This document shows, one piece after another, positions 1-60,331 of a stretch of 64,000 nucleotides of DNA (positions are counted from its first letter, which is position 1; every line of letters starts with the position of its first letter). The stretch is from a virus. Where the stretch lies: IMG/VR virus record IMGVR_UViG_3300017971_000250, positions 20,920 to 84,919 of that record; one strand, 5' to 3'. A program made the translations under genes and the position numbers. Under the pieces are notes generated by a model. It made no database searches. It had not been told where the DNA came from and saw nothing but the letters and a program-made list of their open reading frames with translations.

Positions 1-3000
1 AGATAATCGCGCCCCGGCTCTCACGGCAGATCGATGCCACTATCGGATGCGTCCCCTTTGCCGCCCGGACGCCGATTCGTTTTCGCTTCCGATAGGTGTC
101 CGAAAGACCGCTGTGCGACACGCCGGGTCGCCCGAGCGCGTTCAGGATAGCGACCTCCTCGAAGCTCTCGAACTTGAGCCCCTCGCAGAGCCGGTGCGCG
201 AGCGGAGTGTCTAGCTGAAAAATCCCCGCGAGGTTGCGCCGCGTGAACCCCACCAGCACCTTCGGATCGTTCAGACTGATCGCAGTCAGGTCGGGCGCTC
301 GCTTGCCTCGCCGCTCGATCGCCTCCAGGGCGTCACGGATCACCTTCAGGTTGTGGAGCCCGAGGATGTCCAGCTTGACGAGCCCGAGCGCCTCGACGCC
401 GTGCATATCGAGCGCCGTGACCGGGACGCGCTCGCCGTTGCTCTCGCGCGACTCCAGGGGGCAAACGTCGACGATCGGCTCGGGGGAGATCACGACGCCC
501 GCAGGATGAACCGTGAGCGCCTTCGTCGAACCCTCCAGCTTCAGCGCCGTCTCGACGACGGGCGGATACTTCTGTGCGAACTTCCTGCAAGCCGCCTCAT
601 TCTCAAACGGCCCCTTGAGCCCGCCCTCGTCTATCTCGGTCTGCGTGATGTACTTCTCCGGGATGAGCGGGATCAATTCCTCGATCTCCCGAATCGGAAC
701 CTGGAAAACGCGCCCGACGTCTTTCAGGCACTGCCGCCCGCGCATCGTCGAGCGCGCCGAGATGCGAGCGAAGTGATCGGCCCCGTAGACCGCCTGCAGA
801 TGCGCCAGCACCTCGTCGCGCTGGTCGCTGGCAAAATCACAGTCGATGTCCGGCAGATCGCTGTTTGAAACAAGAATGCCACCAGCGAAGTATTCATGCT
901 GGCCCTCTACCGAGAGGTCATAGACGGGACCGGAGAGAACGATTCGTCTGATGCTCGTGATCGTCGCTCGCGCCAGCGAGCCCATCGCAGCTTGTTCGCG
1001 CAACTCAGCGAGCAACATTCCTGACTCCTGGTCACGGGGGCGCGGAACATCGCTCCACACCACACACATGCACGATCGATCATCTTGAACCCGGCATATT
1101 TGATGCGTCTGGACGTTTCCACAAGGACATCCGTCAATCCCGCCCCCCTGATACTCCTGACAAAATCGTCCTGATAGAGCACCCGTAGGCGATCGCCAAG
1201 AAGCCGCTTCGCCAAGATCAGCTTGCGTCCATCCTGACCACGCCATCCCTTCAATTCGTAGAAGAGATCCTCCTGTGGGAGATAGAAGTCGGGGCAATAC
1301 GTCGTCCCGTCTGCCAACCGAAACCGCTCCGCCTCGTATCGGTAGTCCATGCCCATCCGGCGCAACAAACGCGCGAAGTCCGCCTCCAGCCCTGAACGCA
1401 CGAAATGGCCCAGGTCGGGACGGTATCCGGCCCGCCCCCGCGAATGCGTTCTTGTTCCTTGCAAAGCCCGCCCACACTTCCGGGAGCACGCCTTCTGCCG
1501 CTTCCCGCCCTTGAATTCCATTCCACAAACACAACACTGTCGATGGTGACTCCGAACAACCGCAAGGTAACGACATCGCTCGCTGCAATAGATTTGATTC
1601 CCAGTCCTGCGACGAAATACTCGGTCGCACCAAGGACATTCCGTTTCGCTCCCCACCTTCACCCACACGGGAGGACGGCTGCGTTTCGCCGGAGGAATCA
1701 TCATCGAACGGGTATGGCATCTCCGACTGCAATACTTTCTCTTCTGCGACGGATAGGCCCTGATTGCCATCCCGCAAACAGGACAGTAGCTCGTCACCAA
1801 CTTCGAGCTTACAGGCCGCCGCCTTCTCGTACCCTTCTTTGCGCCTGCCTCGCCTGAAGATTCTGTGCCCATAAGTACAGCGTACTAGAAAAGGCTTTCC
1901 GTCGCTAGTCGTTCCTTCGATTTTCACCCCCGGCTCTTTGCCCCACCGCGCATGGCGTGCCAGAACCCGCCGCAAGCCCATCCGCGTCCAAACCATCATC
2001 CCCGGCCGGACGTCATGGATCGGAAGTGCCCCCACAGAAGTCGACACCAGCGTCTCCCCGGGAAAACACCGCCCGGGAGCGAGGAAGCGCTCGAACATGA
2101 GCCCGTGCCGGATCGGATCGATCTGCGTGATCCCGAGCAGGTAGGCGACCAGGCTGCCACCAACCGAACCGCGCCCCGGCCCGACCATGATCCCTTCCTG
2201 CTTCGCCCAGTCGTAAAGCTCTTTGACCGCGAGGAAGTAGTCGACGACGCCACGCTCTTCGATTGTCGCTAGCTCGTGATTGAGACGGGTCTCGTATTTG
2301 TCGTCCGCCCCATGAAGCAATCCACCGTTCGAGAGATACGCCAGCGCCAACAGGCAGCTTTCCTGTAGATAATCGGCGTGCGTATGGCCGACCAAGACCT
2401 TGATCGGCGGCACGACGGGATCCCGGCGCGGTAGCTCGCTCAGCGCCGCGCACCGTTCGGAGACCTCCCTCGTGCGCAGGACAGCCCCGTCCGTAAAGGT
2501 CGCCCGCAGCCGGGGATGATTCGCCCTGAACGCCCGGACCATTTCGTCCTGGCTTCGCAGATGATACTCGCGCGTCTTGAGCCGGAACCTGGTCGGGCTC
2601 AGTAGGACGCCATGGGTATGAATCGCAAGCAGCGCTTCCTGGTAACGCCAGTCGTCCGCGTCAGGATAATGCGCGTCCTGTGTGGCGACCGCAGGAATGC
2701 CGAGCGCCTCGCCGATCTCGTAGAGCGCCTCGTTGGCGACCCGTAACTCGTCCAGGTCGTGCGGCATGATTTCCAGATAGAAGCGGTCGCCGAGCCGCTC
2801 CTGGAATTCCTCCGCGAGCGCGATCGCGTCCGAAGTCCGTCCCTGGTTCACCGCCAGCGAAACCGGCCCGACCATGCAACCGCTCAGAACGATCAGGCCC
2901 TCGGAGTGTTTCCAGAACGTCGGCAGGTCCACGCACGGCCGCCAGTGAAATCCCTCCAGCCAGGCGATCGAAGTTAGCCGGTAGAGATTGCGGAGCCCGG

Positions 3001-3355
3001 TTTCGTTCATGGCCAGGAGCGTCAGGTGCTGTCTGGTGAGTCCGCGCCGCTCCTCTTCAGCCTTCAGGATTTCGCGCCGCCTCCGGTACGGGGTCCCTTT
3101 GGTGATCTCTTTGATCTCTTCCTTCGAGAACCCGCGCCACGCCATGTCCTCGATCACATAAAGCTCGACGCCGAAGATCGGCCGGATGCCGAGACGCTGC
3201 GCCGCCTTGTCGAAGTCGTGAATCCCGCGCAGCGTGCCGTGCTCCGTAGTCGCGATCGCGTCGTGACGCATTTCGAGCGCCCGCTTGATGAACGCGGCAG
3301 GCTTCCTGAAACCGTCGAATCCCGTGTGATCGGTGTGAACGTGAAGATGAATCAT
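1..3355 (-). CDS. dnaE: DNA polymerase III alpha subunit (phage DnaE), intein-containing, 3' end beyond window
   Basis: Manual translation from ATG 3355. PHP motifs MIHLHVHTDH, TTEHG, GVELY, HLTLLA, LSGC and TQDAHY, then GPGRGSVGGSLVAYLLGITQIDP, FERFL, DLPDIDCDF, HPAGVVI, GLVKLDILGL and GIFQL. Absent from the ORF track because the frame has no stop inside the window. Confidence 0.97.
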   Translation of the reverse strand, partial: MIHLHVHTDHTGFDGFRKPAAFIKRALEMRHDAIATTEHGTLRGIHDFDKAAQRLGIRPIFGVELYVIEDMAWRGFSKEEIKEITKGTPYRRRREILKAEEERRGLTRQHLTLLAMNETGLRNLYRLTSIAWLEGFHWRPCVDLPTFWKHSEGLIVLSGCMVGPVSLAVNQGRTSDAIALAEEFQERLGDRFYLEIMPHDLDELRVANEALYEIGEALGIPAVATQDAHYPDADDWRYQEALLAIHTHGVLLSPTRFRLKTREYHLRSQDEMVRAFRANHPRLRATFTDGAVLRTREVSERCAALSELPRRDPVVPPIKVLVGHTHADYLQESCLLALAYLSNGGLLHGADDKYETRLNHELATIEERGVVDYFLAVKELYDWAKQEGIMVGPGRGSVGGSLVAYLLGITQIDPIRHGLMFERFLAPGRCFPGETLVSTSVGALPIHDVRPGMMVWTRMGLRRVLARHARWGKEPGVKIEGTTSDGKPFLVRCTYGHRIFRRGRRKEGYEKAAACKLEVGDELLSCLRDGNQGLSVAEEKVLQSEMPYPFDDDSSGETQPSSRVGEGGERNGMSLVRPSISSQDWESNLLQRAMSLPCGCSESPSTVLCLWNGIQGREAAEGVLPEVWAGFARNKNAFAGAGRIPSRPGPFRAFRAGGGLRAFVAPDGHGLPIRGGAVSVGRRDDVLPRLLSPTGGSLLRIEGMAWSGWTQADLGEAASWRSPTGALSGRFCQEYQGGGIDGCPCGNVQTHQICRVQDDRSCMCVVWSDVPRPRDQESGMLLAELREQAAMGSLARATITSIRRIVLSGPVYDLSVEGQHEYFAGGILVSNSDLPDIDCDFASDQRDEVLAHLQAVYGADHFARISARSTMRGRQCLKDVGRVFQVPIREIEELIPLIPEKYITQTEIDEGGLKGPFENEAACRKFAQKYPPVVETALKLEGSTKALTVHPAGVVISPEPIVDVCPLESRESNGERVPVTALDMHGVEALGLVKLDILGLHNLKVIRDALEAIERRGKRAPDLTAISLNDPKVLVGFTRRNLAGIFQLDTPLAHRLCEGLKFESFEEVAILNALGRPGVSHSGLSDTYRKRKRIGVRAAKGTHPIVASICRESRGAII
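863..2068 (-). mobile_element. Intein in DnaE (402 codons), lacking an in-frame endonuclease
   Basis: Junctions FLAPGR|CFPGETLVST and GGILVSN|SDLPDID. Block B TYGH, KLEVGDELL, block F VYDLSVEGQHEYFAGG. Removal restores FERFLAPGR-SDLPDID, next to the catalytic aspartates. Confidence 0.93.
907..1872 (-). CDS. Zn-finger plus PD-(D/E)xK endonuclease, putative homing endonuclease nested in the +1 frame of the intein
   Basis: Four CxxC...CSxxC repeats plus the core FVRSGLEADFARLL...YRYE...YCPDFYLP...FYELKGW. The exact start codon is uncertain. Confidence 0.85.
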   Translation of the reverse strand: MGTESSGEAGAKKGTRRRRPVSSKLVTSYCPVCGMAIRAYPSQKRKYCSRRCHTRSMMIPPAKRSRPPVWVKVGSETECPWCDRVFRRRTGNQIYCSERCRYLAVVRSHHRQCCVCGMEFKGGKRQKACSRKCGRALQGTRTHSRGRAGYRPDLGHFVRSGLEADFARLLRRMGMDYRYEAERFRLADGTTYCPDFYLPQEDLFYELKGWRGQDGRKLILAKRLLGDRLRVLYQDDFVRSIRGAGLTDVLVETSRRIKYAGFKMIDRACVWCGAMFRAPVTRSQECCSLSCANKLRWARWRERRSRASDESFSPVPSMTSR

Positions 3356-3879
3356 GGCGTCTGTGTTCCTATGTGACCGAGAGGCACCACGCGCATCTTG
3401 AGCTTGCCGCTCGGAGATCGCGGGGCGGTGTGGTTCAACCACGCCTCGACGATATCGCGTAGCTCGGCGGGAAAGGTCTCGGTCAGCATCCACTCCAGAT
3501 AGCCGCGCCCTTCCTGTGGATCACTCGCTAGCTCTGAAACGCTGTGCCCCGCATGGCGACCGAATTGGAGAATCGCATCAGTCGGCACACCCCCGAGCGT
3601 CGACGGCACAATCGCATAGTTTGCCCGGGGACGCTGCTTCCCGCGCGATCCGGGAACCTTACTCTCTCTCATCGCTGAAAGGTCCACGGCGCGATTCGGT
3701 GTCTTCACAACCCGGTCACCTTCCTGCCCGCCCATCCCCTCGATCAGATCCTTGAGTTGGGCTTCCGAATCCTTCTCGTCCGCCGTTGCTCCTGGAACCG
3801 CGTCGTCGCCGCCTTCGTCCTTCTTCTTGGGGAGGAACTTGCGGCGCATCTCGTCGAGTGATTTGCCTTCAGCGCTCAT
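3352..3879 (-). CDS. Hypothetical protein with C-terminal ExoX-C/DUF3820-like motif
   Basis: Start reassigned to ATG 3879 (MSAEGKSLDEMRRKFLPK), just after the upstream stop. Motif LQFGRHAGHSVSEL...GYLEWM. Stop overlaps the dnaE ATG. Confidence 0.65.
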   Translation of the reverse strand: MSAEGKSLDEMRRKFLPKKKDEGGDDAVPGATADEKDSEAQLKDLIEGMGGQEGDRVVKTPNRAVDLSAMRESKVPGSRGKQRPRANYAIVPSTLGGVPTDAILQFGRHAGHSVSELASDPQEGRGYLEWMLTETFPAELRDIVEAWLNHTAPRSPSGKLKMRVVPLGHIGTQTP

Positions 3880-9990: not shown

Positions 9991-11219
9991 GGCTCGCTCC
10001 TCCCGAAGTGACGCTGCAGGACCCCCGCGACGAACTTGCGGTCGTCGGGTCCGAGCTTGTTGAGCACCGCGATCTCCGAGGCGCGCCGCGTCCCTAGCTG
10101 CCCGCTCTTCTCCGCCCAGGAAAGTAGGCGGCGCAGGCTGAAGGTGCAGCCGCAGTCCTCGTTGGCGTAGCCGAGGCGAACCGTCGTGGCTACCTCCACC
10201 ATCTTCTCGGCCTTGCTACGCTCGATCCCGGTCTTGGCCACCAGGATCCCGATCTCCTTGCTGCCTACCGGGTAGCCTTGCTGGATCACGATTCCGAAGC
10301 GGTCCAGGAAGGCTTCGTTCAGGACGTTGGTCCCGGTATAGAGCCCGGTGTCGTCGCCGCGCCCGAGCGTGTTGGCGGTAGCGATGATCCGGAAGGTCGG
10401 CGCGATCCTCACGACCCGGCCACCGTCGCCCGTCAGGACCAGGCGGCGGTTCTGCTCTAGCAGCGCCTGTAGCGCGAAAAGAATCTCGGGCGGAGCCGCG
10501 TCGATCTCGTCAAGCAGGAGCGCGTATCCCCGGGTCGCCGCCGTAGGCGCGATGCCGTCCTTCCAGGTCACGATGCTCTGCCCGGTCTCGGGATCGACGT
10601 CCAGGACCTTCTCACCGAGAAAGTCGGCCGCCCTGAAGTCGCCGTTCAGGTTCACCCGGATCGTCGGCCAGTTGAGGATGCTCAGTAGCTCCAGCGCCCC
10701 GCTGCTCTTGCCGCAGCCGGTCGGCCCTACGATCAGGACGTTGTCGTCATTGGCCAGCCCGAGCGCGAGCGCCTGCAGGCTCTCGTCGTCGAATTCATAG
10801 TGGGGGTCGTGCTCGGGTACGAAAGCCCGGTCCCGCTCGCTCAGGTCCGCGCGGATCCGAATCTTCACCGGCCCGAACTCTAACTCGGTGCCGAACAGGT
10901 CCTCGGCCTCGTCCTTCGGTAGCGAGGGATCGGCGGCTTGCGCCGTCTGCGCATCCGTCTTTGCCGCCATCACCTTCGCAACCCGCTCCTTCTCCTTCTG
11001 CCTGCGTGCCCGGCTCCAGCGACCCTTCTGGCCGACGCTGCCCTTCTTGCTCGCAGCCACGCCGATGGTCTCCGCACCCGGGTGCTTCTCCCGATACTGC
11101 TCGGTGCTCATCCCGTGGACGAGCCCGAGGTGGGTCGATAGCTGCTCGAAGCGCTTACCGCACTCCAGGCACTCGACCTTGCCGTCGCCTTTCATGGTTC
11201 CCTGGTTCATCGGTTCCAT
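9987..11219 (-). CDS. MoxR/CbbQ/CobS-type AAA+ ATPase with N-terminal C2H2 finger
   Basis: Walker A GPTGCGKS, Walker B LLLDEID, FRIIATANT, NEAFLDRF and FSLRRL; finger CLECGKRFEQLSTHLGLVH. Confidence 0.92.
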   Translation of the reverse strand: MEPMNQGTMKGDGKVECLECGKRFEQLSTHLGLVHGMSTEQYREKHPGAETIGVAASKKGSVGQKGRWSRARRQKEKERVAKVMAAKTDAQTAQAADPSLPKDEAEDLFGTELEFGPVKIRIRADLSERDRAFVPEHDPHYEFDDESLQALALGLANDDNVLIVGPTGCGKSSGALELLSILNWPTIRVNLNGDFRAADFLGEKVLDVDPETGQSIVTWKDGIAPTAATRGYALLLDEIDAAPPEILFALQALLEQNRRLVLTGDGGRVVRIAPTFRIIATANTLGRGDDTGLYTGTNVLNEAFLDRFGIVIQQGYPVGSKEIGILVAKTGIERSKAEKMVEVATTVRLGYANEDCGCTFSLRRLLSWAEKSGQLGTRRASEIAVLNKLGPDDRKFVAGVLQRHFGRSEP

Positions 11220-11232
11220 CTCCCCTCGGCCC

Positions 11233-11472
11233 CTAGCTCAGCACCTTGACTTCGCGCTCGCCGTGGTCGGCCGCGTAGCGGATCGCCATCCTCTTCGCCT
11301 CGGCGAAGGAGCCGACCTGCCAGAAACGCTCGCTACCAATCTCGAAGGCCCAGTGGCCGTAGCCGCGCGGCTTGCGTCTATGCGCCCACTCGAACTCGGT
11401 CGTCACGACCCTCACGCTGCTCTGCGCTACCCGCGCCTCGCTTCCCGTTCCCGTCTGGCTTCCCTGGTTCAT
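11233..11472 (-). CDS. Small hypothetical early protein
   Basis: Start reassigned to ATG 11472 behind GAGGAGGAACCG; AHRRKPRGYGHWAF motif. Confidence 0.7.
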   Translation of the reverse strand: MNQGSQTGTGSEARVAQSSVRVVTTEFEWAHRRKPRGYGHWAFEIGSERFWQVGSFAEAKRMAIRYAADHGEREVKVLS

Positions 11473-11600
11473 CGGTTCCTCCTCGGTTCCGGCCGGGGCC
11501 CCTTCCCCAACCACCATCATTATCGTCTCGGCCGCCCAGGAAGTCCAGAGAAATCTTCGCCGATCCCCCAACTTTCTGCTATCGCCTACGGCCGCCGCCA
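11467..11600 (-). promoter_or_regulatory. Repeated early promoter-leader module, copy 1
   Basis: TGGACT-N17-GATAAT (11547-11519), upstream GATAGCAGAAAGTTG...CGAAGATTTCTCT, leader hairpin and RBS; matches copies at 62.1 and 63.8 kb. Confidence 0.8.
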
Positions 11601-11609
11601 CTTACGGGG

Positions 11610-12680
11610 TCACAGCAGCCCCCTCAATCGCCTGGTCACGGCCGCCCGCAGCGCCGATTCCAACGGCCGCGCGCCCTGGACCGCGCGCCTCAGCACATCG
11701 GGCGGGGCCTCCCCGGGGTCGCCGTAGCCTTCGAGGTCGTCCGTGATGCACGCGTCGATTCCGGCCCGGATGATTTGCTCGATCGCTTCGTCGTGCGCCT
11801 CGGGGTCGAGGCTCAGCACCAGCCGCGTTCCGCCTAGCATTCGAATCGTGCGCAGCGGTCCGAGCCCCTTACCGAGCAGCGCGACCGAAGCGAAGCCCGC
11901 GCGATCGTAGGCGAGCACATCGAAGACGCCCTCGGCGATCACGAGCGCCCGCTTGCCCGCCGCGATACGGGACGCCGCCTGAAACCATCCGAAGACCAGC
12001 TTGCCCGTCCCCGGCCCCGAGAGGTATCGGATCTCGGCCGCCTTCGAAACCGCACGCGCCGTGAAGCTCAATCCCTCGGGACAAACGACCGGGAAGATGA
12101 TCCTGCCGGAGTAGCGACCCGAATTGCAAAAGCCGATCTCGTAGCGCCGCGCCTGCTCGCGCGTCACCCCACGCTCCTGGAGATACTTCGGGAAGCGCCA
12201 CACCGGATCACGACTGCTGTCGTAGATAGGCTCCAGCCCGGGGATGCGCTCCTTCGCCAAAATCGCAAGCGCCCCGAGATGCGTGTTCGCCCGCCACTCG
12301 ATAGGTCCCTGCGGAGCGGACACGGGCCGGTGCGGTGTCCGGTTTTTGTCCCTTGTCCGGACTGCTGACCCGAAGCCAGCACCTCCCCGCACTTCGATCA
12401 CCAGTGCTGCCTTGGCCTCGTGGGGTTCGAGCCCTTCGTGCTCTGCGTAGAGCGGAGCGAACCCGGATCCCTTGCGCCCGCATCGAAAACAGATCCAAGC
12501 CCCGCGCTCATGGGTGCCGTGCTCGTCTTCCCACTCTTCGAGATTGACGTAGCAGCGGTCGGCGCTCTTGCAATCTTCGAACGGACACGGCCCGACCATC
12601 TGAGGAACCTTCCCGGTCGACGGCCGGTAGCCTGCCGCTTCGAGGTATCCCTCTAGGTCGAACTCGTCCAGGAAGCCCAT
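11610..12680 (-). CDS. DNA primase (Zn finger plus TOPRIM)
   Basis: CPF...C...CFRC, YLQERG, GRIIFPV, IAEGVFDVLA, LSLDPEA. Confidence 0.9.
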   Translation of the reverse strand: MGFLDEFDLEGYLEAAGYRPSTGKVPQMVGPCPFEDCKSADRCYVNLEEWEDEHGTHERGAWICFRCGRKGSGFAPLYAEHEGLEPHEAKAALVIEVRGGAGFGSAVRTRDKNRTPHRPVSAPQGPIEWRANTHLGALAILAKERIPGLEPIYDSSRDPVWRFPKYLQERGVTREQARRYEIGFCNSGRYSGRIIFPVVCPEGLSFTARAVSKAAEIRYLSGPGTGKLVFGWFQAASRIAAGKRALVIAEGVFDVLAYDRAGFASVALLGKGLGPLRTIRMLGGTRLVLSLDPEAHDEAIEQIIRAGIDACITDDLEGYGDPGEAPPDVLRRAVQGARPLESALRAAVTRRLRGLL

Positions 12681-13972
12681 CAGGTATCACTCACTGGCGG
12701 GGCCTTGATCAGCATCCGGGAGAAGTCGCAGACCGCCTGCACCCTGAATCGCGCGCGCCGCGTTCGGCCCTTGCTGATCCAGATATCCCGATGCGTCTCG
12801 CGGTCGAGGTTCGGGTCCTCCGGCATATTCACGCTCAGCACGATCGACGCGATCTCGCCCTTGCTCTGCGCGCCCCGGAGGTGCCGCGTTCCCGCCATCT
12901 TTCCCTCGGCCGATTTGTCCGCCTGCGTCATAACCCAAAGGCCCGCGTCGTGGCGTTGCGCCAGGCCCGCGAGCCTTCGGTAAACCGTCGTCAGATAGGC
13001 CCATCCATACTTCGGATCGAACGTGCCGCCCTCGCCCATCTTGAGGTGGTCAGGCGAGTCGAAGACGACGAGGTCCGGGATGAAGCCCCGGGCCTCTAGC
13101 TCCGTCCACGCCGCCTCGACGTCGGCCACGGTCGCCTGCTCGACGCCGATGTAGAGGACCTGTAGCTGCTCGGCCAGCCGCTTGTGATTGCGCTTCAACC
13201 AGGTCGTCAATAGCTGCTTGTGCGCGCCGCTGTAGCTCCCGCTTTCGATCAGCGCGTGCGGGATCCGCGTGAACCGCGAGATCACCCGCGAGGTCGTCAC
13301 CCGCTCCCCGTTCTCCGAATCGACATGGAGGACCCGGAAGCCCTGCCGGATAGCCGCGAAGTCGAGCGAGACGCCGAGCGAGGATTTGCCGTGCCCGGTG
13401 ACGCCGAAGACGATGCCTAGCTCGCCGCGCCCGATCCCGTCGATGACTTCGTCCAGCGCGTAGAGCCCAGTCGGGATCCGCTCGGCCCCGGGGATGTGGA
13501 GGAGATTCTTGGGGACGAGGGGACGCGCGCTCGGCCGCGACGACGACACGACGCCGCCAGCGAAGGTGCGGTCCAGGAGCGCGAGTGCCGCCTCGTCCTG
13601 TCCCTTCTCAAACCGTTTCGTCGCGCGGTCTATCGTGGTCAGCACCCGCCGCTTCGTCTGCCGCTTGGCGAGCATCCGCGCGACCACGCGCGGCCGCGCC
13701 TCGGGGACCGCCGTGGCAATCCCGTCGAGCGCATCATTGAGCGGATCGTGGAGGTCCGGGGGCAGCGCGAGCACCGCCGCCCGGAGCGCCGTCATGGACG
13801 GGGACTCGCCCGTTGCCTCGTAGGTTTCAACGACCTGTTTCCAGAGCCATCCGTGCTCGGGCTCGGCCCACTCGTAGCCGCCTAGCTCGGCGATCGTGGA
13901 GGCGCAGGACCCGCTGTCAACGATACAACGATGCAACAAGCAGGCTTCCAACTCGCCCCACTTCGCCTCCAT
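12680..13972 (-). CDS. dnaB: DnaB-like replicative helicase
   Basis: IPTGLYALDEVIDGIGRGELGIVFGVTGHGKS, LVVFDSPDHL, WVMTQA, ISKGR. Confidence 0.88.
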   Translation of the reverse strand: MEAKWGELEACLLHRCIVDSGSCASTIAELGGYEWAEPEHGWLWKQVVETYEATGESPSMTALRAAVLALPPDLHDPLNDALDGIATAVPEARPRVVARMLAKRQTKRRVLTTIDRATKRFEKGQDEAALALLDRTFAGGVVSSSRPSARPLVPKNLLHIPGAERIPTGLYALDEVIDGIGRGELGIVFGVTGHGKSSLGVSLDFAAIRQGFRVLHVDSENGERVTTSRVISRFTRIPHALIESGSYSGAHKQLLTTWLKRNHKRLAEQLQVLYIGVEQATVADVEAAWTELEARGFIPDLVVFDSPDHLKMGEGGTFDPKYGWAYLTTVYRRLAGLAQRHDAGLWVMTQADKSAEGKMAGTRHLRGAQSKGEIASIVLSVNMPEDPNLDRETHRDIWISKGRTRRARFRVQAVCDFSRMLIKAPPVSDT

Positions 13973-55300: not shown

Positions 55301-55934
55301 TGAGCATCGTATCCTCGGCAATCGTGGCGATCTTGTTGGAGACGTTCTTGGCGTGGTGCTGCCCGATCCAGTAGGTCTGGTGGGTCTTCATCGATTCGAC
55401 GGCCGCGTCGTCGACGACGCTGAATCGCGGTTTGATTTCGAAGGTGGTGCGCGGCTTCCCCTTCGCCTTGCGCACGTCGTCGAACGTCAGGTGTGGGGAG
55501 ACTGGACGGACCACGCGGTTGTTGGGATGCGCGTTCGCTCGGGCGGCCGCCTGGACCTTCGCTTCCCGATACGACGCGCGGAGCACCGCCTCGACGATGT
55601 GCTCCGTTCCCGCATCCCAGTTTTGGAAGGCGCGGTCGACTCGCTGCTTGACCGCTTCGACGTCGGCACGAGTAGGCCGCCCGTCCGGGTCCCCTTGGCC
55701 TGCGCGGTCGGTAGCATCACGCACCGCAACGCGAGCGGCCTTGGTGTAGGCCCGGACGAGCGTCTTGAATAGCCGCGCCTCCAGCGCGACGAACGGAGCC
55801 GTCGGATCCTTCGTCGCCGCCTTGACGAGGATCACGTCAGTGGCGACCAGCGCCTCCGCTAGCTGCTGCGGGGTGCTGTGCTCCAGGTCAGCACCCGGGG
55901 GTGCGGTGACCTGGTCAGTCGGCGAGCCGCCCAC
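52365..55934 (-). CDS. MuF/SPP1 gp7 minor head protein with HipA/PI3K-like kinase and ART-like C-terminal domains
   Basis: DERTCEVC...LPTYHFRCRC; WLFKP, FDWLISQHDTHSGN, FIDKG; LVH.....IL...GLIA, GGAVNVF, NET. Confidence 0.8.
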   Translation of the reverse strand: MGGSPTDQVTAPPGADLEHSTPQQLAEALVATDVILVKAATKDPTAPFVALEARLFKTLVRAYTKAARVAVRDATDRAGQGDPDGRPTRADVEAVKQRVDRAFQNWDAGTEHIVEAVLRASYREAKVQAAARANAHPNNRVVRPVSPHLTFDDVRKAKGKPRTTFEIKPRFSVVDDAAVESMKTHQTYWIGQHHAKNVSNKIATIAEDTMLKQGLSRREAAKALEASLKAEFGYDPKQPFGTAGTFGIPGKWNGSPIQYFEGVAANATTTARIAGKVQEYKEVGASLIEVIAAQDERTCEVCGFMDKKVFTLQQADTQVTELQGASEPNSVKLIQPWSRLKQINKDSLTTSKDTGRVAPHKAQALAKTGHCLPTYHFRCRCDIDIAEDATFKPYEEIPDAPEPAKPAEPPVTIPPKPPVAGQPLSAPLPKKPPPPPKPQPIKPPPDRPPDAFPFEESQMKDLGRQGLDGMHSKSVYEAPDGTRWLFKPQSEFRARGDVLAADMAKALGLETPDVYMTRLGGKVGSIQKMYTNVVSDYGSIAPSSLSATECSIIQRQHLFDWLISQHDTHSGNLIKLTNGHTVFIDKGQTFRFFGKDKLTLGYGASGTPNPSSTYYHTMFQSAIKGDAVQLAEINHRRIQGFLKAVDDMSDEAFANIIRPYALAAEKAYKEGAVRMGFSGQFWMKDLSADEFIAQAAARKRALRKEAEKFYKVLEKKLHPPVPKAPTVSIAAPEVSMPPGAVQQLDDVLVREIIESKWAGKAVMVGGSDFEEMQLLAYQVKGEGFLMEGKLRQGSMRKLEKVMQDPPRGYSVRRFREMPVRRREFNFTTREIEWTGETSSSLRRAAMTWEIKTPSGIEIEYTPFIAENTKNHFSASGQFVMRLPKAKGAADVTITEVKAMLGELKSLGLNSQIATADDIDLLYLRLVAENKGLGKRAAKVRETLTPATQKKKLRDLLSENNVPLTKERGFSSVPKFDHGTKFGRAYWEAPVTQAEEEFYQSHKLVHTITGTSKRISESLDKILSGTEGLIATEEKIRAGIGIAGMSPTADRASGGAVNVFTRIRKIKKGTGYGANSVGDMGNSYVLNPRKTMRKTTTFSYEGDRYGSMKTRARNTRLFNARDWAASADNYGNETTVRNFVDFSDALESVVVPNLQEKQEVLAVLRKHGIKKLGDRKIEQAITIVGRPLFE

Positions 55935-58800
55935 CTACCGGCTCCTTCTTCTTGCGCCCGGATCCGTTATCCCGCCCCTCCTCCATCTCGACAAAGAGAC
56001 GGCGTTCGAACTCCTCCTCTAGCGCATCCCGGACAGCGAGGATCGCCTGCAGCGGTCCGACCTCCAGCCGCTTCATCATTCCGTCTCCAGGATTCATGTC
56101 CTGGTTCTTCGCCGCCTCGGCGACCTGGAGCGTGAATGGGACATTCACGTCGATGCCGGTCACCGGGGGAAGCTCGCGGCCGACGATGTCGCCGATGATC
56201 TCGCGCGCCAGCCACGGGCTCATTCCGCCCGTGCGCTCCGCCGCCATCAGCACCCGGATCAGGTCCTGGTCGTCGGTGACGTTCGGCCCCTGCGAGACGA
56301 ACTTGTGGTAGACGATCCCCATTGCGGGAAAGAGGAACTTGTTGATCCAGTTATCGAAGGCAAGCCGCTCGGGAGCGAAGATTTGCTCGTCGGCCAGCTT
56401 CCGGCTCGCGTCGGCGGTCGCGCGGGTGTAGTCGTCTGAATTGCCCGAAATCAAGACGCGTCCATTGCGACGCGTAACGAGCGTTCCGTTCGGAACTGTG
56501 AAGCATGTCACTTTGCCAGAGTACGGGACAGTCCGGATCTGTTTTCGTGCCTGAAGAAGATGCCTGCTGTCACGATGCCCGTAGGAAATCCATCGAATGC
56601 TCCGATTCTCGCCCCGATCTTCTTCGCGTGTCGTGAGTGCGTACCCAAGCCGGAGTGCGATCTCATGTAATTGATCGCTTAGCACTCTTGATGTCGTCGA
56701 GTAGACGAAAGCGTCTTCCGTCCCAAGCGGAGGACGGTTTCCGTCGCCCTCGATCATTGCGTTGAGAAGACTCTCGATCTGTTCCTGTTCCAGGTCTAAC
56801 ACCCACCGAGGAAGGCGCTTATTAGAGCAGCCTACACCGCAATTCTCACGCAACCACTCCCACAACCCACTATGACAGATTGTCAGACTGTATTGCCCTG
56901 GACGGCCTTCGGTTCGACTAGGATCGAAGCCGAGTCGTTTGAGAACATCCACCATCCTCTCCAAAACCTCACCCTCGTTCTGTGAGAGCATGATCGGTCC
57001 ACGCCGTTCTGTCGTAGACCCCTCGGAGATAAAATAACCTAGGAATTGCAAAAACGCGTCCATGGACACGTCACGATTCGCATACTTCACTACCGCACGC
57101 TCTGCACGCTCGGTATCCCGATGCGGATTCTTGGACGGAGGCGATGCCCCGTCACGGCCGTTAATACGACCGCCTGGGGGAATCGCAAACCGTTCTATCT
57201 TTCTCCCTCTCCAAGACGCGGAGACTGGAATCTCCATGCAGCCACCATTTCCTCGCAAGCATTCGGTCGCAAGAGTGTCGGCGGCGAGAAATTCCCATGG
57301 CTTCGGCGTCCGCGACATAGCAGCGGTCGGACGCGTCCAAAAACGGTGATTCGGCGTAACCATCGCATCGATTCCACGATTCTGTAGATGGAGCAACTCC
57401 CCTTCAAAACTATAGCTGTGCCGTTCTGTAGGCACTTGATATTCTAATGCCCCCGATGCCGTGTTCATGGTCGCTACCGCCACACCATCCGCAACATCCT
57501 CGAATCGCTTCCAACCCACCTCGGTGAGGTATTCCGTGTCCTCCGAATGACATCCTCCGATGAAGATAGGCGGCAGCCGGAACGCCTCGCGGATCTTGTC
57601 GCGGTTCGCAGCGCCGTACTCCTGGAACATCATGTCGCGCATTTGCTCGTTGGTGAGCGGTTTGATTTCGAGCTTGATCTGACCCGTGTCCGTCCCGTCC
57701 TGAAGCTGCGACGGCTCGCCTTCGAGGATCAGGAACCGGCTCCAGTTTGCGGAGCCCTGAATCTGCGTCTGGACGAACTCACGGATCCGCTTCACCGAGC
57801 CGGAGGTGAGACGGCCGTTCGAGACGGTGATCGCCATCGACGGGATGTTGTTATTGCGCAGGGTCGTGAAGTTGACCTCCTCGGCGGAGCGGTCCCCCAT
57901 GATAGTGATCAGATTCCCGAGCCAGCGCGGCAGCCCGTAAGGGGTACGCGGAGAATGGTTGCAGAAGTAGATCAACTCATTGGCGCGCTTCTCGGGCTCC
58001 AGCTTCTCCCCATCAGGAGCGAACTTTCCGGTCTCCGCGTCCAGATCGCGCGGGTCCCCAAATTGCTTGAACCAGACCGGCTTGTCATTCGTCCCGACGG
58101 GCGGGACGACGACGTAGCGGCGGAAGTAGCGCTTCACCTTGACGTTTCTGATCTCGCGTGAGCCGTTATCTGTCAGCATCGCCATCGCCTGCTCCGTTTC
58201 GACCAGCTCGCGCCCCATGTGCGCCAGCCGGATACGGTAGCCGGGGACGTAGTTGAGGAATTGGATTTCGCCACTGACCGGACCCCGGATGACTTCCCAT
58301 CCTCCAAAACCGATCGACTCACGATCACGGCGCGTCTTCGAGCGTAGCTCGACGAATGTATCCTCGGCACTGCAATTGGCAAAGAAGTTAGTCAGTCGGG
58401 TGCGCTCGGCCTTGACTGCGATCTTGAGCCGATCGGGGCATTCGGGATCGTCGGTGTTGACGAGGCGCTGGAAAGCATGCCCGAAGCCCTCGATGTTGAC
58501 GACCATGACGTCGATGCACTTCCCAAGGTGAGCGGACTGCTCTGGTAGCATCGCCAAGACCAGTGGCTCGAATGGCGGGGAGATGACCTCGTTGCGGGAC
58601 ATCGATCCGAATCCCTCAGAGGGAAACGTACGTGGCCGCCCACTCGTCGCGGTTCCTTTCTCGATACCGACCGGCCCAATGATGAAGGCTCGCGCGGCAC
58701 CGCTCGCCCGCTTCTGCATTTCGGCCGCTTCGGTTCCCGGCTGCGGATTGCCTTCGCCCGGAACTGCGCGCCGCCTTGCTTTCGTCTCTTTGCTGGACAC
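55915..58800 (-). CDS. Portal protein, intein-containing
   Basis: SPPFEP, DRESIGFGGWEVIR, ANELIYF, PYGLPRW, AFRLPPIFIG, DYTRATA; follows TerL. Confidence 0.92.
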   Translation of the reverse strand: MSSKETKARRRAVPGEGNPQPGTEAAEMQKRASGAARAFIIGPVGIEKGTATSGRPRTFPSEGFGSMSRNEVISPPFEPLVLAMLPEQSAHLGKCIDVMVVNIEGFGHAFQRLVNTDDPECPDRLKIAVKAERTRLTNFFANCSAEDTFVELRSKTRRDRESIGFGGWEVIRGPVSGEIQFLNYVPGYRIRLAHMGRELVETEQAMAMLTDNGSREIRNVKVKRYFRRYVVVPPVGTNDKPVWFKQFGDPRDLDAETGKFAPDGEKLEPEKRANELIYFCNHSPRTPYGLPRWLGNLITIMGDRSAEEVNFTTLRNNNIPSMAITVSNGRLTSGSVKRIREFVQTQIQGSANWSRFLILEGEPSQLQDGTDTGQIKLEIKPLTNEQMRDMMFQEYGAANRDKIREAFRLPPIFIGGCHSEDTEYLTEVGWKRFEDVADGVAVATMNTASGALEYQVPTERHSYSFEGELLHLQNRGIDAMVTPNHRFWTRPTAAMSRTPKPWEFLAADTLATECLRGNGGCMEIPVSASWRGRKIERFAIPPGGRINGRDGASPPSKNPHRDTERAERAVVKYANRDVSMDAFLQFLGYFISEGSTTERRGPIMLSQNEGEVLERMVDVLKRLGFDPSRTEGRPGQYSLTICHSGLWEWLRENCGVGCSNKRLPRWVLDLEQEQIESLLNAMIEGDGNRPPLGTEDAFVYSTTSRVLSDQLHEIALRLGYALTTREEDRGENRSIRWISYGHRDSRHLLQARKQIRTVPYSGKVTCFTVPNGTLVTRRNGRVLISGNSDDYTRATADASRKLADEQIFAPERLAFDNWINKFLFPAMGIVYHKFVSQGPNVTDDQDLIRVLMAAERTGGMSPWLAREIIGDIVGRELPPVTGIDVNVPFTLQVAEAAKNQDMNPGDGMMKRLEVGPLQAILAVRDALEEEFERRLFVEMEEGRDNGSGRKKKEPVGGRLAD
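56440..57552 (-). mobile_element. Intein in portal (371 codons) with in-frame LAGLIDADG endonuclease
   Basis: IFIGG|CHSEDTEYLT...VTPNH...FLGYFISEGS...LLNAMIEGDG...VTCFTVPNG...ISGN|SDDY. Confidence 0.93.
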
Positions 58801-58810
58801 GGCTTCCCTC

Positions 58811-60331
58811 CTAGATCAGCCCCGGCTCCTCGCGGGGCTCCATCGCGCGCCCGGTGCGCGCCTCGGATGCGTGAATCGCCAGGTCGGTCGCGTCGAACAA
58901 GTCGTCGGGCGAGGTATCATCGCCTCGGAAGAGCACCAGGTGATCGATGAGATCGGTGTGCGCGCCCCGAACGAAGTGGACGTTTCCCGCTTCGGTGCGC
59001 GCGGAGAGCTTCGCTGCCCTGATCGGCTTGTTCTTGTTCGTGATCTGTGGGTAGGCATTGAGCCAGGGTGCCTGGCGACGCACCTCCTGGAACTGCGCCT
59101 TCTGATACGCATTCGATTCGATCGCGGTTCGATTCGGCCGGTAGCGCTTCCCGAACTCGATAATCTTCTCGGTCTGCTTGTGGAACGGCAGCCCCTGCTT
59201 CTCGTAGAACGTCCACACCCAAATATCGTCCCATCGTTGCGGGACACGGCCGATCACAACAATCGCAAACTTGTCGGCCCGCTTCGAATCGCCGATCGCC
59301 AGGTCGACGCCCATGAAGATTTCGACGTCGTGAGGCGAGGGGAAGTCAGCAGCGTCGACCTGGTGCAGGTCTCCGAGCGGGAAGTAGGAGCCCTTCATCG
59401 GGTCATAGTTGCAGAGCCATTGCGAAGCAAAGATCACAGTGCCGACTTTGCGTCGCTTGCGCTCGATCCAGTCGCGCGGATAGCGATCCGGCCAAACGGG
59501 GGTCCCATTCGGCTTCACGATTGGGATCACGAGCGTGCGCTCTTTCATATCGGTCTGCAGGAAGTGCCACCAGAGGTCGTCGATCTGATACGGGGTGCCG
59601 TTGTAGTGTTTCTGTCCGCACTCCGGATCGTCAGGGTAGGCGGCCGGAGGGAGCCCGCAGGGATCCAGCACGCGGTCGTGCCATTCCTGGAGCCGCTTGC
59701 GTTGGTAGGCGGTCGCTGAGTTTTCCTCCTCGACCAGGTCGTCGCCGAAGATGATGCGGTAGTGCTTCGAGGCGACCGCGCCCTCAACGCCGACGGTATT
59801 GATGGTCGGCGTGACGCGCTTCCGGGCAACGCCCGCGACGTCGATTGCCTCCTCGGTCCAGCGATACTCACCAACGAAGTCGCCAAAGATCTCGCGTAGC
59901 TTCTCGTTCGATTCGAAATGCCCTTTGATCTCGCCGAGCATATCCATCGAGTTGCCGTGCTTCTTGGAGCCGATCAGGATGGTGGTTTCGCGGTTGCGAA
60001 TGACCGCGCCGATCGATTTGACGACCGTGCGCATCGTCGTCTTGCCGGAGCCCCGGAAGGCCAGCACCAGGTCCTCGCGGTGCCGGGCGGTGTGGGCAAG
60101 CATCCGATCGTGAAGGCCGCGACGGATCTTGTAACCGAGGACCTCGGTCGCCAAGACGTCGTCGCGGCCAGCAAGAACCGCACGACGAATCAGGGAGTTT
60201 TTCGTCTCCCTGATCCCTTCGTGAACCCGGACTAGCTCATCGCGGCCCGCCTTCTTGAATCGCTCCGACTCGAGGGTGCGGACGAAATCCAAACCGGGAT
60301 GCGCAACGAGTGATGGCTTGCCTGCTGGCAT
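58811..60331 (-). CDS. Terminase large subunit
   Basis: AFRGSGKTT, IFGDDL, NGTPY..DDL, MGVDLA, IESNAYQ, DDLFDA. Confidence 0.94.
   Translation of the reverse strand: MPAGKPSLVAHPGLDFVRTLESERFKKAGRDELVRVHEGIRETKNSLIRRAVLAGRDDVLATEVLGYKIRRGLHDRMLAHTARHREDLVLAFRGSGKTTMRTVVKSIGAVIRNRETTILIGSKKHGNSMDMLGEIKGHFESNEKLREIFGDFVGEYRWTEEAIDVAGVARKRVTPTINTVGVEGAVASKHYRIIFGDDLVEEENSATAYQRKRLQEWHDRVLDPCGLPPAAYPDDPECGQKHYNGTPYQIDDLWWHFLQTDMKERTLVIPIVKPNGTPVWPDRYPRDWIERKRRKVGTVIFASQWLCNYDPMKGSYFPLGDLHQVDAADFPSPHDVEIFMGVDLAIGDSKRADKFAIVVIGRVPQRWDDIWVWTFYEKQGLPFHKQTEKIIEFGKRYRPNRTAIESNAYQKAQFQEVRRQAPWLNAYPQITNKNKPIRAAKLSARTEAGNVHFVRGAHTDLIDHLVLFRGDDTSPDDLFDATDLAIHASEARTGRAMEPREEPGLI

Follow-up and report, generated by a model that had tools for sequence, protein, structure and literature searches.

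A putative T7 endonuclease I-like nuclease gene nested in the +1 frame of a phage DnaE intein

We analysed a window of 64,000 nucleotides (nt), bases 20920-84919 of the 84.9-kb IMG/VR virus record IMGVR_UViG_3300017971_000250 (63% guanine plus cytosine, GC). The DNA belongs to an uncultivated high-GC marine/sediment phage. Its gene for DnaE, the alpha subunit of DNA polymerase III (Pol III alpha), probably contains a contiguous intein with a complete nuclease gene of the free-standing type in the +1 frame, placed at the point where inteins usually carry their endonuclease. The nested frame has a large family of homologues and keeps their catalytic and zinc (Zn)-binding residues intact, the intein frame is held open by selection, and the same layout recurs in the nearest relative. 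Protein splicing, DNA cleavage, homing and a separate route of translation for the nuclease would complete this picture.

The DnaE gene lies on the minus strand, begins with the ATG at 3355 and extends beyond the window; the full protein has 1732 amino acids (aa). As shown in Table 1, its first intein (intein 1) separates FERFLAPGR from SDLPDIDCDF, with the insertion point 4 residues upstream of the catalytic PDxDxDF motif. Its splicing motifs are Cys1 (2068..2066), T64-Y-G-H67 of block B, the C-terminal VYDLSVEGQHEYFAGGILVSN (...GGILVSN/S) and Ser+1. After removal of the intein in silico, the junction FERFLAPGR/SDLPDIDCDF aligned without a gap to intein-less phage DnaE (loci L003-L007, L163 and L166), and the boundaries of intein 1 are therefore exact. 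The model TIGR01443 scored 24 bits on it, above the cut-off of 15.6, whereas a search with TIGR01445 (intein N-terminus) recovered none of the inteins of the record. Judged by the motifs and the spliced-junction alignment, intein 1 is a contiguous class 1 intein with a predicted Hint fold, which would be expected to splice.

The same nucleotides encode a 321-aa product (P0002) in the +1 frame, whose ATG lies within the TAT GGG codons of block B and whose TAG lies within block F. This product matched PHROG 1271 (2.8e-21) and PHROG 9019 (resolvase, 3.8e-12), and in tblastn it matched annotated phage endonuclease I / resolvase genes (T7-like) at 2e-6. In a library of 1.8 billion proteins, 3585 relatives were found at E<=1e-3, mostly of 200-350 aa, and the family profile retrieved T7 endonuclease I (1m0d) from the PDB at 4.7e-8, with SGLE, PDF and ExKG aligned. 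In an alignment of 16 sequences, the nested nuclease retains all invariant columns (G146, G149, R151, D153, S160, E163, A164, R168, E180, Y192, P194 and D195), as well as the nearly invariant E206, G209 and Cys pairs. The columns of E163, D195, E206 and K208 are invariant or nearly so, and these residues line up with SGLE, PDF and ETKG of 1m0d; we take their roles to be those of the catalytic Glu, Asp, Glu and Lys of T7 endonuclease I. From these alignments, the nested product appears to form a distant subfamily of T7 endonuclease I-like nucleases.

When AlphaFold was run with the family alignment, the nested nuclease reached a mean predicted local distance difference test score (pLDDT) of 81. 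Four Zn ribbons and the core were confident, and low confidence was limited to the first ~18 and the last ~11 residues. The overlap of the nuclease with the true splicing blocks involves only floppy tails, about 30 codons at the N-terminal end and about 25 at the C-terminal end; therefore the structured part of the nuclease overlies the intein linker. Foldseek gave no match at E<=0.001 for the whole four-domain model, and the PD-(D/E)xK nucleases 1wdj, 3r3p, 1m0d and 4par headed its list of weak matches. P0002 itself was absent from a collection of 5.8 billion proteins, where a word-based search gave one partial match, and a scan of viral sequences using P0002 alone found nothing; scans with the family profile were required.

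In the intein frame, residues 97-365 gave no match in Pfam, PHROG or NCBIfam. The only full match of the intein-frame query in the 5.8-billion-protein collection was the window's own DnaE, and the next one, an intein of terminase P0155, aligned only to residues 1-75 and 381-402. AlphaFold on the single intein-frame sequence gave a pLDDT of 35 throughout, genuine splicing ends included, and is thus uninformative on the linker. A preliminary description of this DNA, made from the sequence alone, had placed the intein at 863-2068 with intact splicing blocks and a stop-free frame, had recognised no endonuclease motif in its middle, and had read a 321-aa protein with four Zn fingers and a PD-(D/E)xK core between blocks B and F. 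Its coordinates, frames and motifs were borne out by our searches.

We then considered how the intein frame stays open. An intein-frame stop requires a nuclease codon ending in T before AAN, AGN or GAN, and the preliminary description had proposed to look for depletion of such pairs. The depletion is complete: T occupies the third position at 0 of 69 risk junctions, compared with 68 of 252 other junctions, in an open reading frame (ORF) where 21% of codons end in T. Shuffling of synonymous codons within the nested ORF (10,000 trials) produced a mean of 13.4 intein-frame stops and a minimum of 4, and the analytic probability of zero stops was 2.6e-7. The third frame of the same strand has 12 stops within the nested ORF and 16 over the intein plus 60-nt flanks. 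As controls, all 28 other long ORFs of the window carry 3-26 stops in the equivalent frame, and each of the 80 free-standing members of the family in viral contigs has 12-45. When these 80 are taken with 71 non-nested metagenomic members, the match is interrupted by 1-45 stops, in most cases by several or more. These results demonstrate that the open intein frame is held by selection through synonymous choices in the nuclease frame, with no NNT before AAN, AGN or GAN. In the reverse direction, with the intein frame as the starting point, finding the +1 frame open is no more than mildly unlikely (P 0.016-0.28). The test works one way only, so the argument depends on the nuclease frame being genuinely coding, as its homology shows.

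A metagenome scan with the nuclease family profile yielded 73 loci. The closest two, L090 and L091 (GC 0.63-0.64, from two samples), represent the DnaE of one phage, with an intein at the same site (FERFMSPGR/C...GILVGN/SDLPDIDVDF). Its nested nuclease has 286 aa, is 49% identical to that of the window, lies again in the +1 frame, and its ATG has GAGGGGGG 8 nt upstream. When the window was aligned to L090, the nuclease frame scored 383, whereas the intein-frame middle scored 2 (26% identity). Shuffling predicts 8.3 host-frame stops in this relative; we observed none in the portion of the nuclease ORF present on the L091 contig, and one in L090. The two contigs differ at one base in 1941 nt (L090:3217 T, L091:479 G), which turns a GAA of the linker into TAA and, read in the nuclease frame, replaces W by C; GTG and ATG codons follow the new TAA. 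This stop may be an error, a defective genome or a split-intein allele. A homologue with a stop in the intein frame, which the preliminary description had listed as counting against its reading, was thus seen in L090 but not in its near-identical partner L091. In the other 71 of the 73 loci the nuclease stands alone or lies in frame, and the other frames contain stops. By these comparisons the same +1 layout is conserved in the nearest relative, with constraint on the nuclease frame, in one independent lineage.

Table 1. Coordinates of the DnaE gene parts, the inteins and the nested reading frames (positions in the window unless a locus or the genome is named)
Feature	Position	Strand	Basis
DnaE N-extein	2069..3355	-	PHP and first part of NTPase/palm domain, ends FERFLAPGR; Pfam PHP 1.2e-37, DNA_pol3_alpha 1e-68
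Intein 1, 402 codons in DnaE frame	863..2068	-	Cys1, TYGH, block F/G, Asn402/Ser+1; TIGR01443
N-terminal splicing region, intein residues 1-96	1780..2068	-	Block B T64-H67 at 1868-1879; 36% identity to L090 intein N-part
Intein-frame linker, residues 97-365	974..1779	-	Stop-free, without recognisable domain in intein frame
C-terminal splicing region, residues 366-402, blocks F and G	863..973	-	62% identity to L090 over last 40 residues
DnaE C-extein	2..862	-	Begins SDLPDIDCDF (catalytic aspartates), leaves window; Pfam DNA_pol3_alpha and finger domain
Nested ORF (P0002), 321 aa + TAG, +1 relative to intein frame	907..1872	-	PHROG 1271; 3585 relatives; AlphaFold
Three N-terminal CxxC...CxxC Zn ribbons, nuclease residues 30-133	1474..1785	-	Cys columns in at least 90% of family; pLDDT 80-92
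T7-endonuclease-I-like PD-(D/E)xK core, residues 146-250	1123..1437	-	E163, D195, E206, K208; E-L-K at 1257..1249
Fourth, C-terminal Zn ribbon, residues 269-291	1000..1068	-	C269, C272, C287, C291 invariant with P0004 and P0006
Intein 2, 351 codons, FNK/SH site	L088 1899..847 = genome 19646-20698, just outside window	-	In same DnaE
Intein 2 nested ORF, 346 codons, +1 frame, Vsr-like, sense strand	L088 1895..858	-	Homologues
Portal protein with in-frame LAGLIDADG domain, canonical intein	55921-58815	-	Same phage
SbcC/Rad50-like ATPase, intein in P-loop with in-frame HNH motif, canonical	L089:221-2881, genome about 10220-12880	-	Same record

We propose that ribosomes translating DnaE would read straight through intein 1 and produce a linker of about 270 residues without a recognisable domain, which protein splicing would remove along with the rest of the intein. 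The linker frame would then have to satisfy one requirement only, the absence of a stop codon. The nuclease would be produced separately and, if it acts like other intein endonucleases, would cut intein-less DnaE alleles, into which the element would be copied. Low, leaky initiation would suit a homing enzyme. As to its origin, the nuclease gene may have invaded a mini-intein.

Several observations weigh against this proposal. Pfam Phage_endo_I (PF05367) scored 21.6 bits on the nested product, below its gathering cut-off of 29.1, and Pfam Intein_splicing scored 18.2 bits on intein 1, below a cut-off of 35.8; the latter is weak evidence, because the 270-residue linker interrupts the profile. 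The penultimate residue of intein 1 is Ser401, not His, and Gly stands at the same place in L090. Inteins without a penultimate His are known to splice, and we therefore regard this residue as a variation and not as exclusion from class 1. The TAA in the linker of L090 means that not all sequenced copies retain an open frame. No Shine-Dalgarno motif was found at ATG1872 or at the next in-frame starts, although most genes of the phage carry strong GGAGG-type sites, and a promoter scan revealed no promoter-like site inside the gene. We therefore infer, rather than observe, expression of the nuclease, and this is the weak point of the proposal. A search for a +1 frameshift site near the start of the overlap revealed a series of rare Arg codons (AGA, AGG, CGA, AGG) and no known slippery motif. 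Finally, the composition of the nested ORF is foreign-looking, with GC at third codon positions (GC3) of 0.64 and T at 21% of these positions, compared with a GC3 of 0.73-0.87 for phage genes, and with this composition about 13 stops would be expected in the DnaE frame after a fresh insertion. The proposal does not account for the avoidance or purging of these stops on arrival of the nuclease gene.

The missing initiation signals raise the question of whether the nested nuclease is a silent, recently trapped relic, no longer translated and due to decay, in a frame that is open only because DnaE is needed. The absence of a Shine-Dalgarno motif at any candidate start and of a promoter-like site would fit such a relic, but we consider it unlikely: its 321 codons are intact, compared with 12 stops in the third frame, and every family-invariant catalytic and Zn residue is retained. 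Moreover, the homologue in L090/L091 is intact at only 49% identity and has its upstream GAGGGGGG, which points to long-term purifying selection.

The stop in L090, with the GTG and ATG codons behind it, would also suit a split intein in a fractured gene, in which DnaE-N/IntN and IntC/DnaE-C are made apart and joined in trans, and in which the open frame is incidental or transitional. Genes of this kind have been described (Dassa et al. 2009, PMC2677866), and in the window the ATG of Met351, just before the C-terminal splicing region, is led by AGGAG. We nevertheless find this arrangement very unlikely. The window frame is continuous, as is that of L091, and selection would have no reason to keep stops out (P about 3e-7) if ribosomes did not have to read through; the L090 stop comes down to one base of a single contig, which may be erroneous or derive from a defective genome. 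As to internal starts in the intein frame, Met351 (1018, minus strand) has the AGGAG 6 nt upstream and lies 15 codons ahead of the C-terminal splicing region, and Met144 (1639) is preceded by AAGGTGGGGAG. About 5% of the phage's internal start codons carry such a Shine-Dalgarno-like motif by chance.

It is highly improbable that a sequencing or assembly artefact, namely two compensating indels, masks an ordinary in-frame endonuclease domain. In-frame versions of the nuclease family do exist in other DnaE inteins, but Logan contigs from runs of two studies (sediment and seawater metagenome) cover bases 1-3600 with no difference and no gap, a check that rests on contigs, not raw reads, with either run possibly being the window's own source. 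The compensating indels that the preliminary description had thought of were absent from these contigs. An identical 1732-aa DnaE is on record from three sources (JGI, Logan and ENA), and an artefact would leave both the ~13 missing stops and the same frame offset in L090/L091 unexplained. Lastly, a chance open frame is hardly credible: GC-rich genomes do have long spurious ORFs, and an open +1 frame is only mildly unlikely when calculated from the intein frame, but homology establishes the nuclease frame as coding, an open intein frame then has a probability of 2.6e-7, and the pattern recurs in relatives.

Both Logan runs also contain a second, divergent contig, which matches only short conserved DnaE stretches (window 395-422 and 2162-2191). 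The spacing between these stretches is 530 nt in the contig and 1739 nt in the window; the difference of 1209 nt equals the intein's 1206 nt plus one codon. By this spacing, the co-occurring contig looks like the intein-less DnaE of a relative.

A second intein (intein 2) of the same DnaE, just outside the window, shows the same arrangement with an unrelated nuclease. Its nested ORF has T at 0 of 62 risk junctions, where shuffling gives a mean of 10.4 stops. Homologues of this ORF were found down to 1.4e-34, two of them named very-short-patch-repair (Vsr) endonuclease by JGI, and the invariant columns D...E-V-D-G..H-F...R-D are retained. Among its viral relatives (GC 0.37-0.59), 11 of 14 are nested in the +1 frame of ORFs of 1000-1700 aa without a host-frame stop, and Pfam identified all four of the hosts searched as phage DnaE. 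In several of these nested Vsr-like relatives, the first ATG is preceded by a strong Shine-Dalgarno motif; in the intein 2 ORF, the ATG at L088 1733 has GGAGG 9 nt upstream. A PDB profile search with the intein 2 ORF was not significant (best 0.53, AbaSI), and a protein atlas returned one lead only (0.81). In all, the record holds four inteins. The other two are canonical, namely that of the SbcC/Rad50-like ATPase and that of the portal protein, for which the preliminary description had correctly reported an in-frame LAGLIDADG domain.

Two further observations concern inteins elsewhere. The closest relative of the splicing ends of intein 1 is the second intein of P0155, with 43% identity over residues 1-75 and 82% over 22 residues. 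This terminase large subunit (985 aa, from Logan) has two inteins, and the middles of both resemble low-complexity frame-shifted sequence; they may conceal further out-of-frame or antisense ORFs. The core of the intein 1 nuclease also matches KC117377.1 17596-17832 (Haloarcula virus HVTV-1), a region annotated as replication factor C small subunit in one record and as endonuclease in another. This match may be another intein-borne copy.

The novelty implied by the preliminary description was overstated, since overlapping-frame intein endonucleases have already been described (Gorbalenya 1998; Gosselin 2025; Phillips 2026). Such an endonuclease was first proposed by Gorbalenya (1998), as cited in bioRxiv 10.64898/2026.09.14.751524. 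Actinobacteriophage inteins with a homing endonuclease in a separate frame or on the other strand were reported by Gosselin, Arsenault and Gogarten (bioRxiv 10.1101/2025.01.02.630785). As in intein 1, their splicing blocks are intact in the extein frame, the usual endonuclease region has no recognisable fold, and an ORF for an endonuclease of the free-standing type overlaps it; Pol III alpha is among the hosts, and the authors propose invasion of the intein by a free-standing endonuclease gene. In contrast, their same-strand case is Endo VII-like and in frame 3, their Vsr-like and LAGLIDADG cases are antisense, and no stop-avoidance statistic was given, whereas the DnaE gene described here hosts two overlapped inteins, and the enzyme of its intein 1 is T7-endonuclease-I-like, has a Zn-ribbon array and lies in frame +1. 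Phillips, DeSimone and Gogarten (bioRxiv 10.64898/2026.09.14.751524) described a cyanobacterial dnaX intein with an out-of-frame LAGLIDADG endonuclease, found purifying selection on the endonuclease frame with the intein frame relaxed, and argued for secondary invasion of a mini-intein. Their case, too, concerns a replication gene with a contiguous intein overlapped by an endonuclease in another frame, but the host is cellular, the enzyme is LAGLIDADG and the ORF is +2.

In the fractured genes of Dassa et al. (2009), split inteins are parted by a free-standing Vsr-like/EDxHD endonuclease gene. The likeness to the window lies in a free-standing gene of the PD-(D/E)xK type at the endonuclease insertion point of inteins carried by phage-like replication genes, and the L090 allele resembles that state. 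By comparison, the nuclease of intein 1 belongs to another family, and the host frame is uninterrupted in the window and in L091, being divided only in L090, so one polypeptide and cis-splicing would be expected. The ShiLan insertion, a hidden out-of-frame HNH endonuclease in a phage methylase (Arsenault et al. 2025, PMC11855218), has a host frame that is likewise stop-free over the endonuclease gene and poses the same question of how the endonuclease is translated. Unlike intein 1, it has no splicing domains, and the insert is thought to remain in the protein as a loop.

Regarding the enzyme itself, T7 endonuclease I (gp3; PDB 1m0d, 1fzr, 2pfj) shares the homologous core, with E...PD...ExK aligned. 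It is a small structure-specific junction resolvase without Zn ribbons, whereas the core in the window is flanked by four, as would be expected for a homing enzyme that reads sequence. The same nuclease core family also occurs inside canonical inteins of the same host family (P0028, P0037, P0042, P0052, P0071, P0059 and P0100), where an Endo-I-like core with NUMOD3 sits in frame at the finger-domain site of DnaE. In these, NUMOD3 takes the place of the Zn-ribbon array, and the window's nuclease is less close to them than to its free-standing relatives. We did not find this in-frame endonuclease type named in the intein literature compared.

Taken together, the layout itself is known, and what is new is the T7 endonuclease I-like family with Zn ribbons, the presence of two unrelated overlapped nucleases in one gene, and a natural one-base stop variant. 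The family of the intein 1 nuclease differs from those of the published overlapping-frame cases (Endo VII-like, LAGLIDADG and Vsr-like), and that of intein 2 is Vsr-like but on the sense strand. Intein 1 thus adds a member of a third nuclease superfamily to the short list of overlapping-frame intein endonucleases.

In summary, two proteins of different fates share about 1 kb of DNA, and one of the frames, which would be discarded by splicing, needs only to be free of stops. The nuclease frame goes unreported by gene callers, as the absence of the 321-aa protein from the 5.8-billion-protein collection illustrates, and intein surveys and phage annotation should therefore scan alternative frames. 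Linkers of this kind show how much unstructured insert an intein tolerates. The nuclease family is seen free-standing, in frame and out of frame, and one gene holds two unrelated nucleases, which supports the capture of endonucleases from free-standing homing genes. A doubtful but conceivable extension is that a single point mutation can convert a contiguous dual-coding intein into a split, fractured gene or back again, and that natural phage populations harbour both states. If both the L090 and the L091 allele yield working DnaE, by trans- and cis-splicing respectively, the locus would represent a living intermediate in how split inteins arise.

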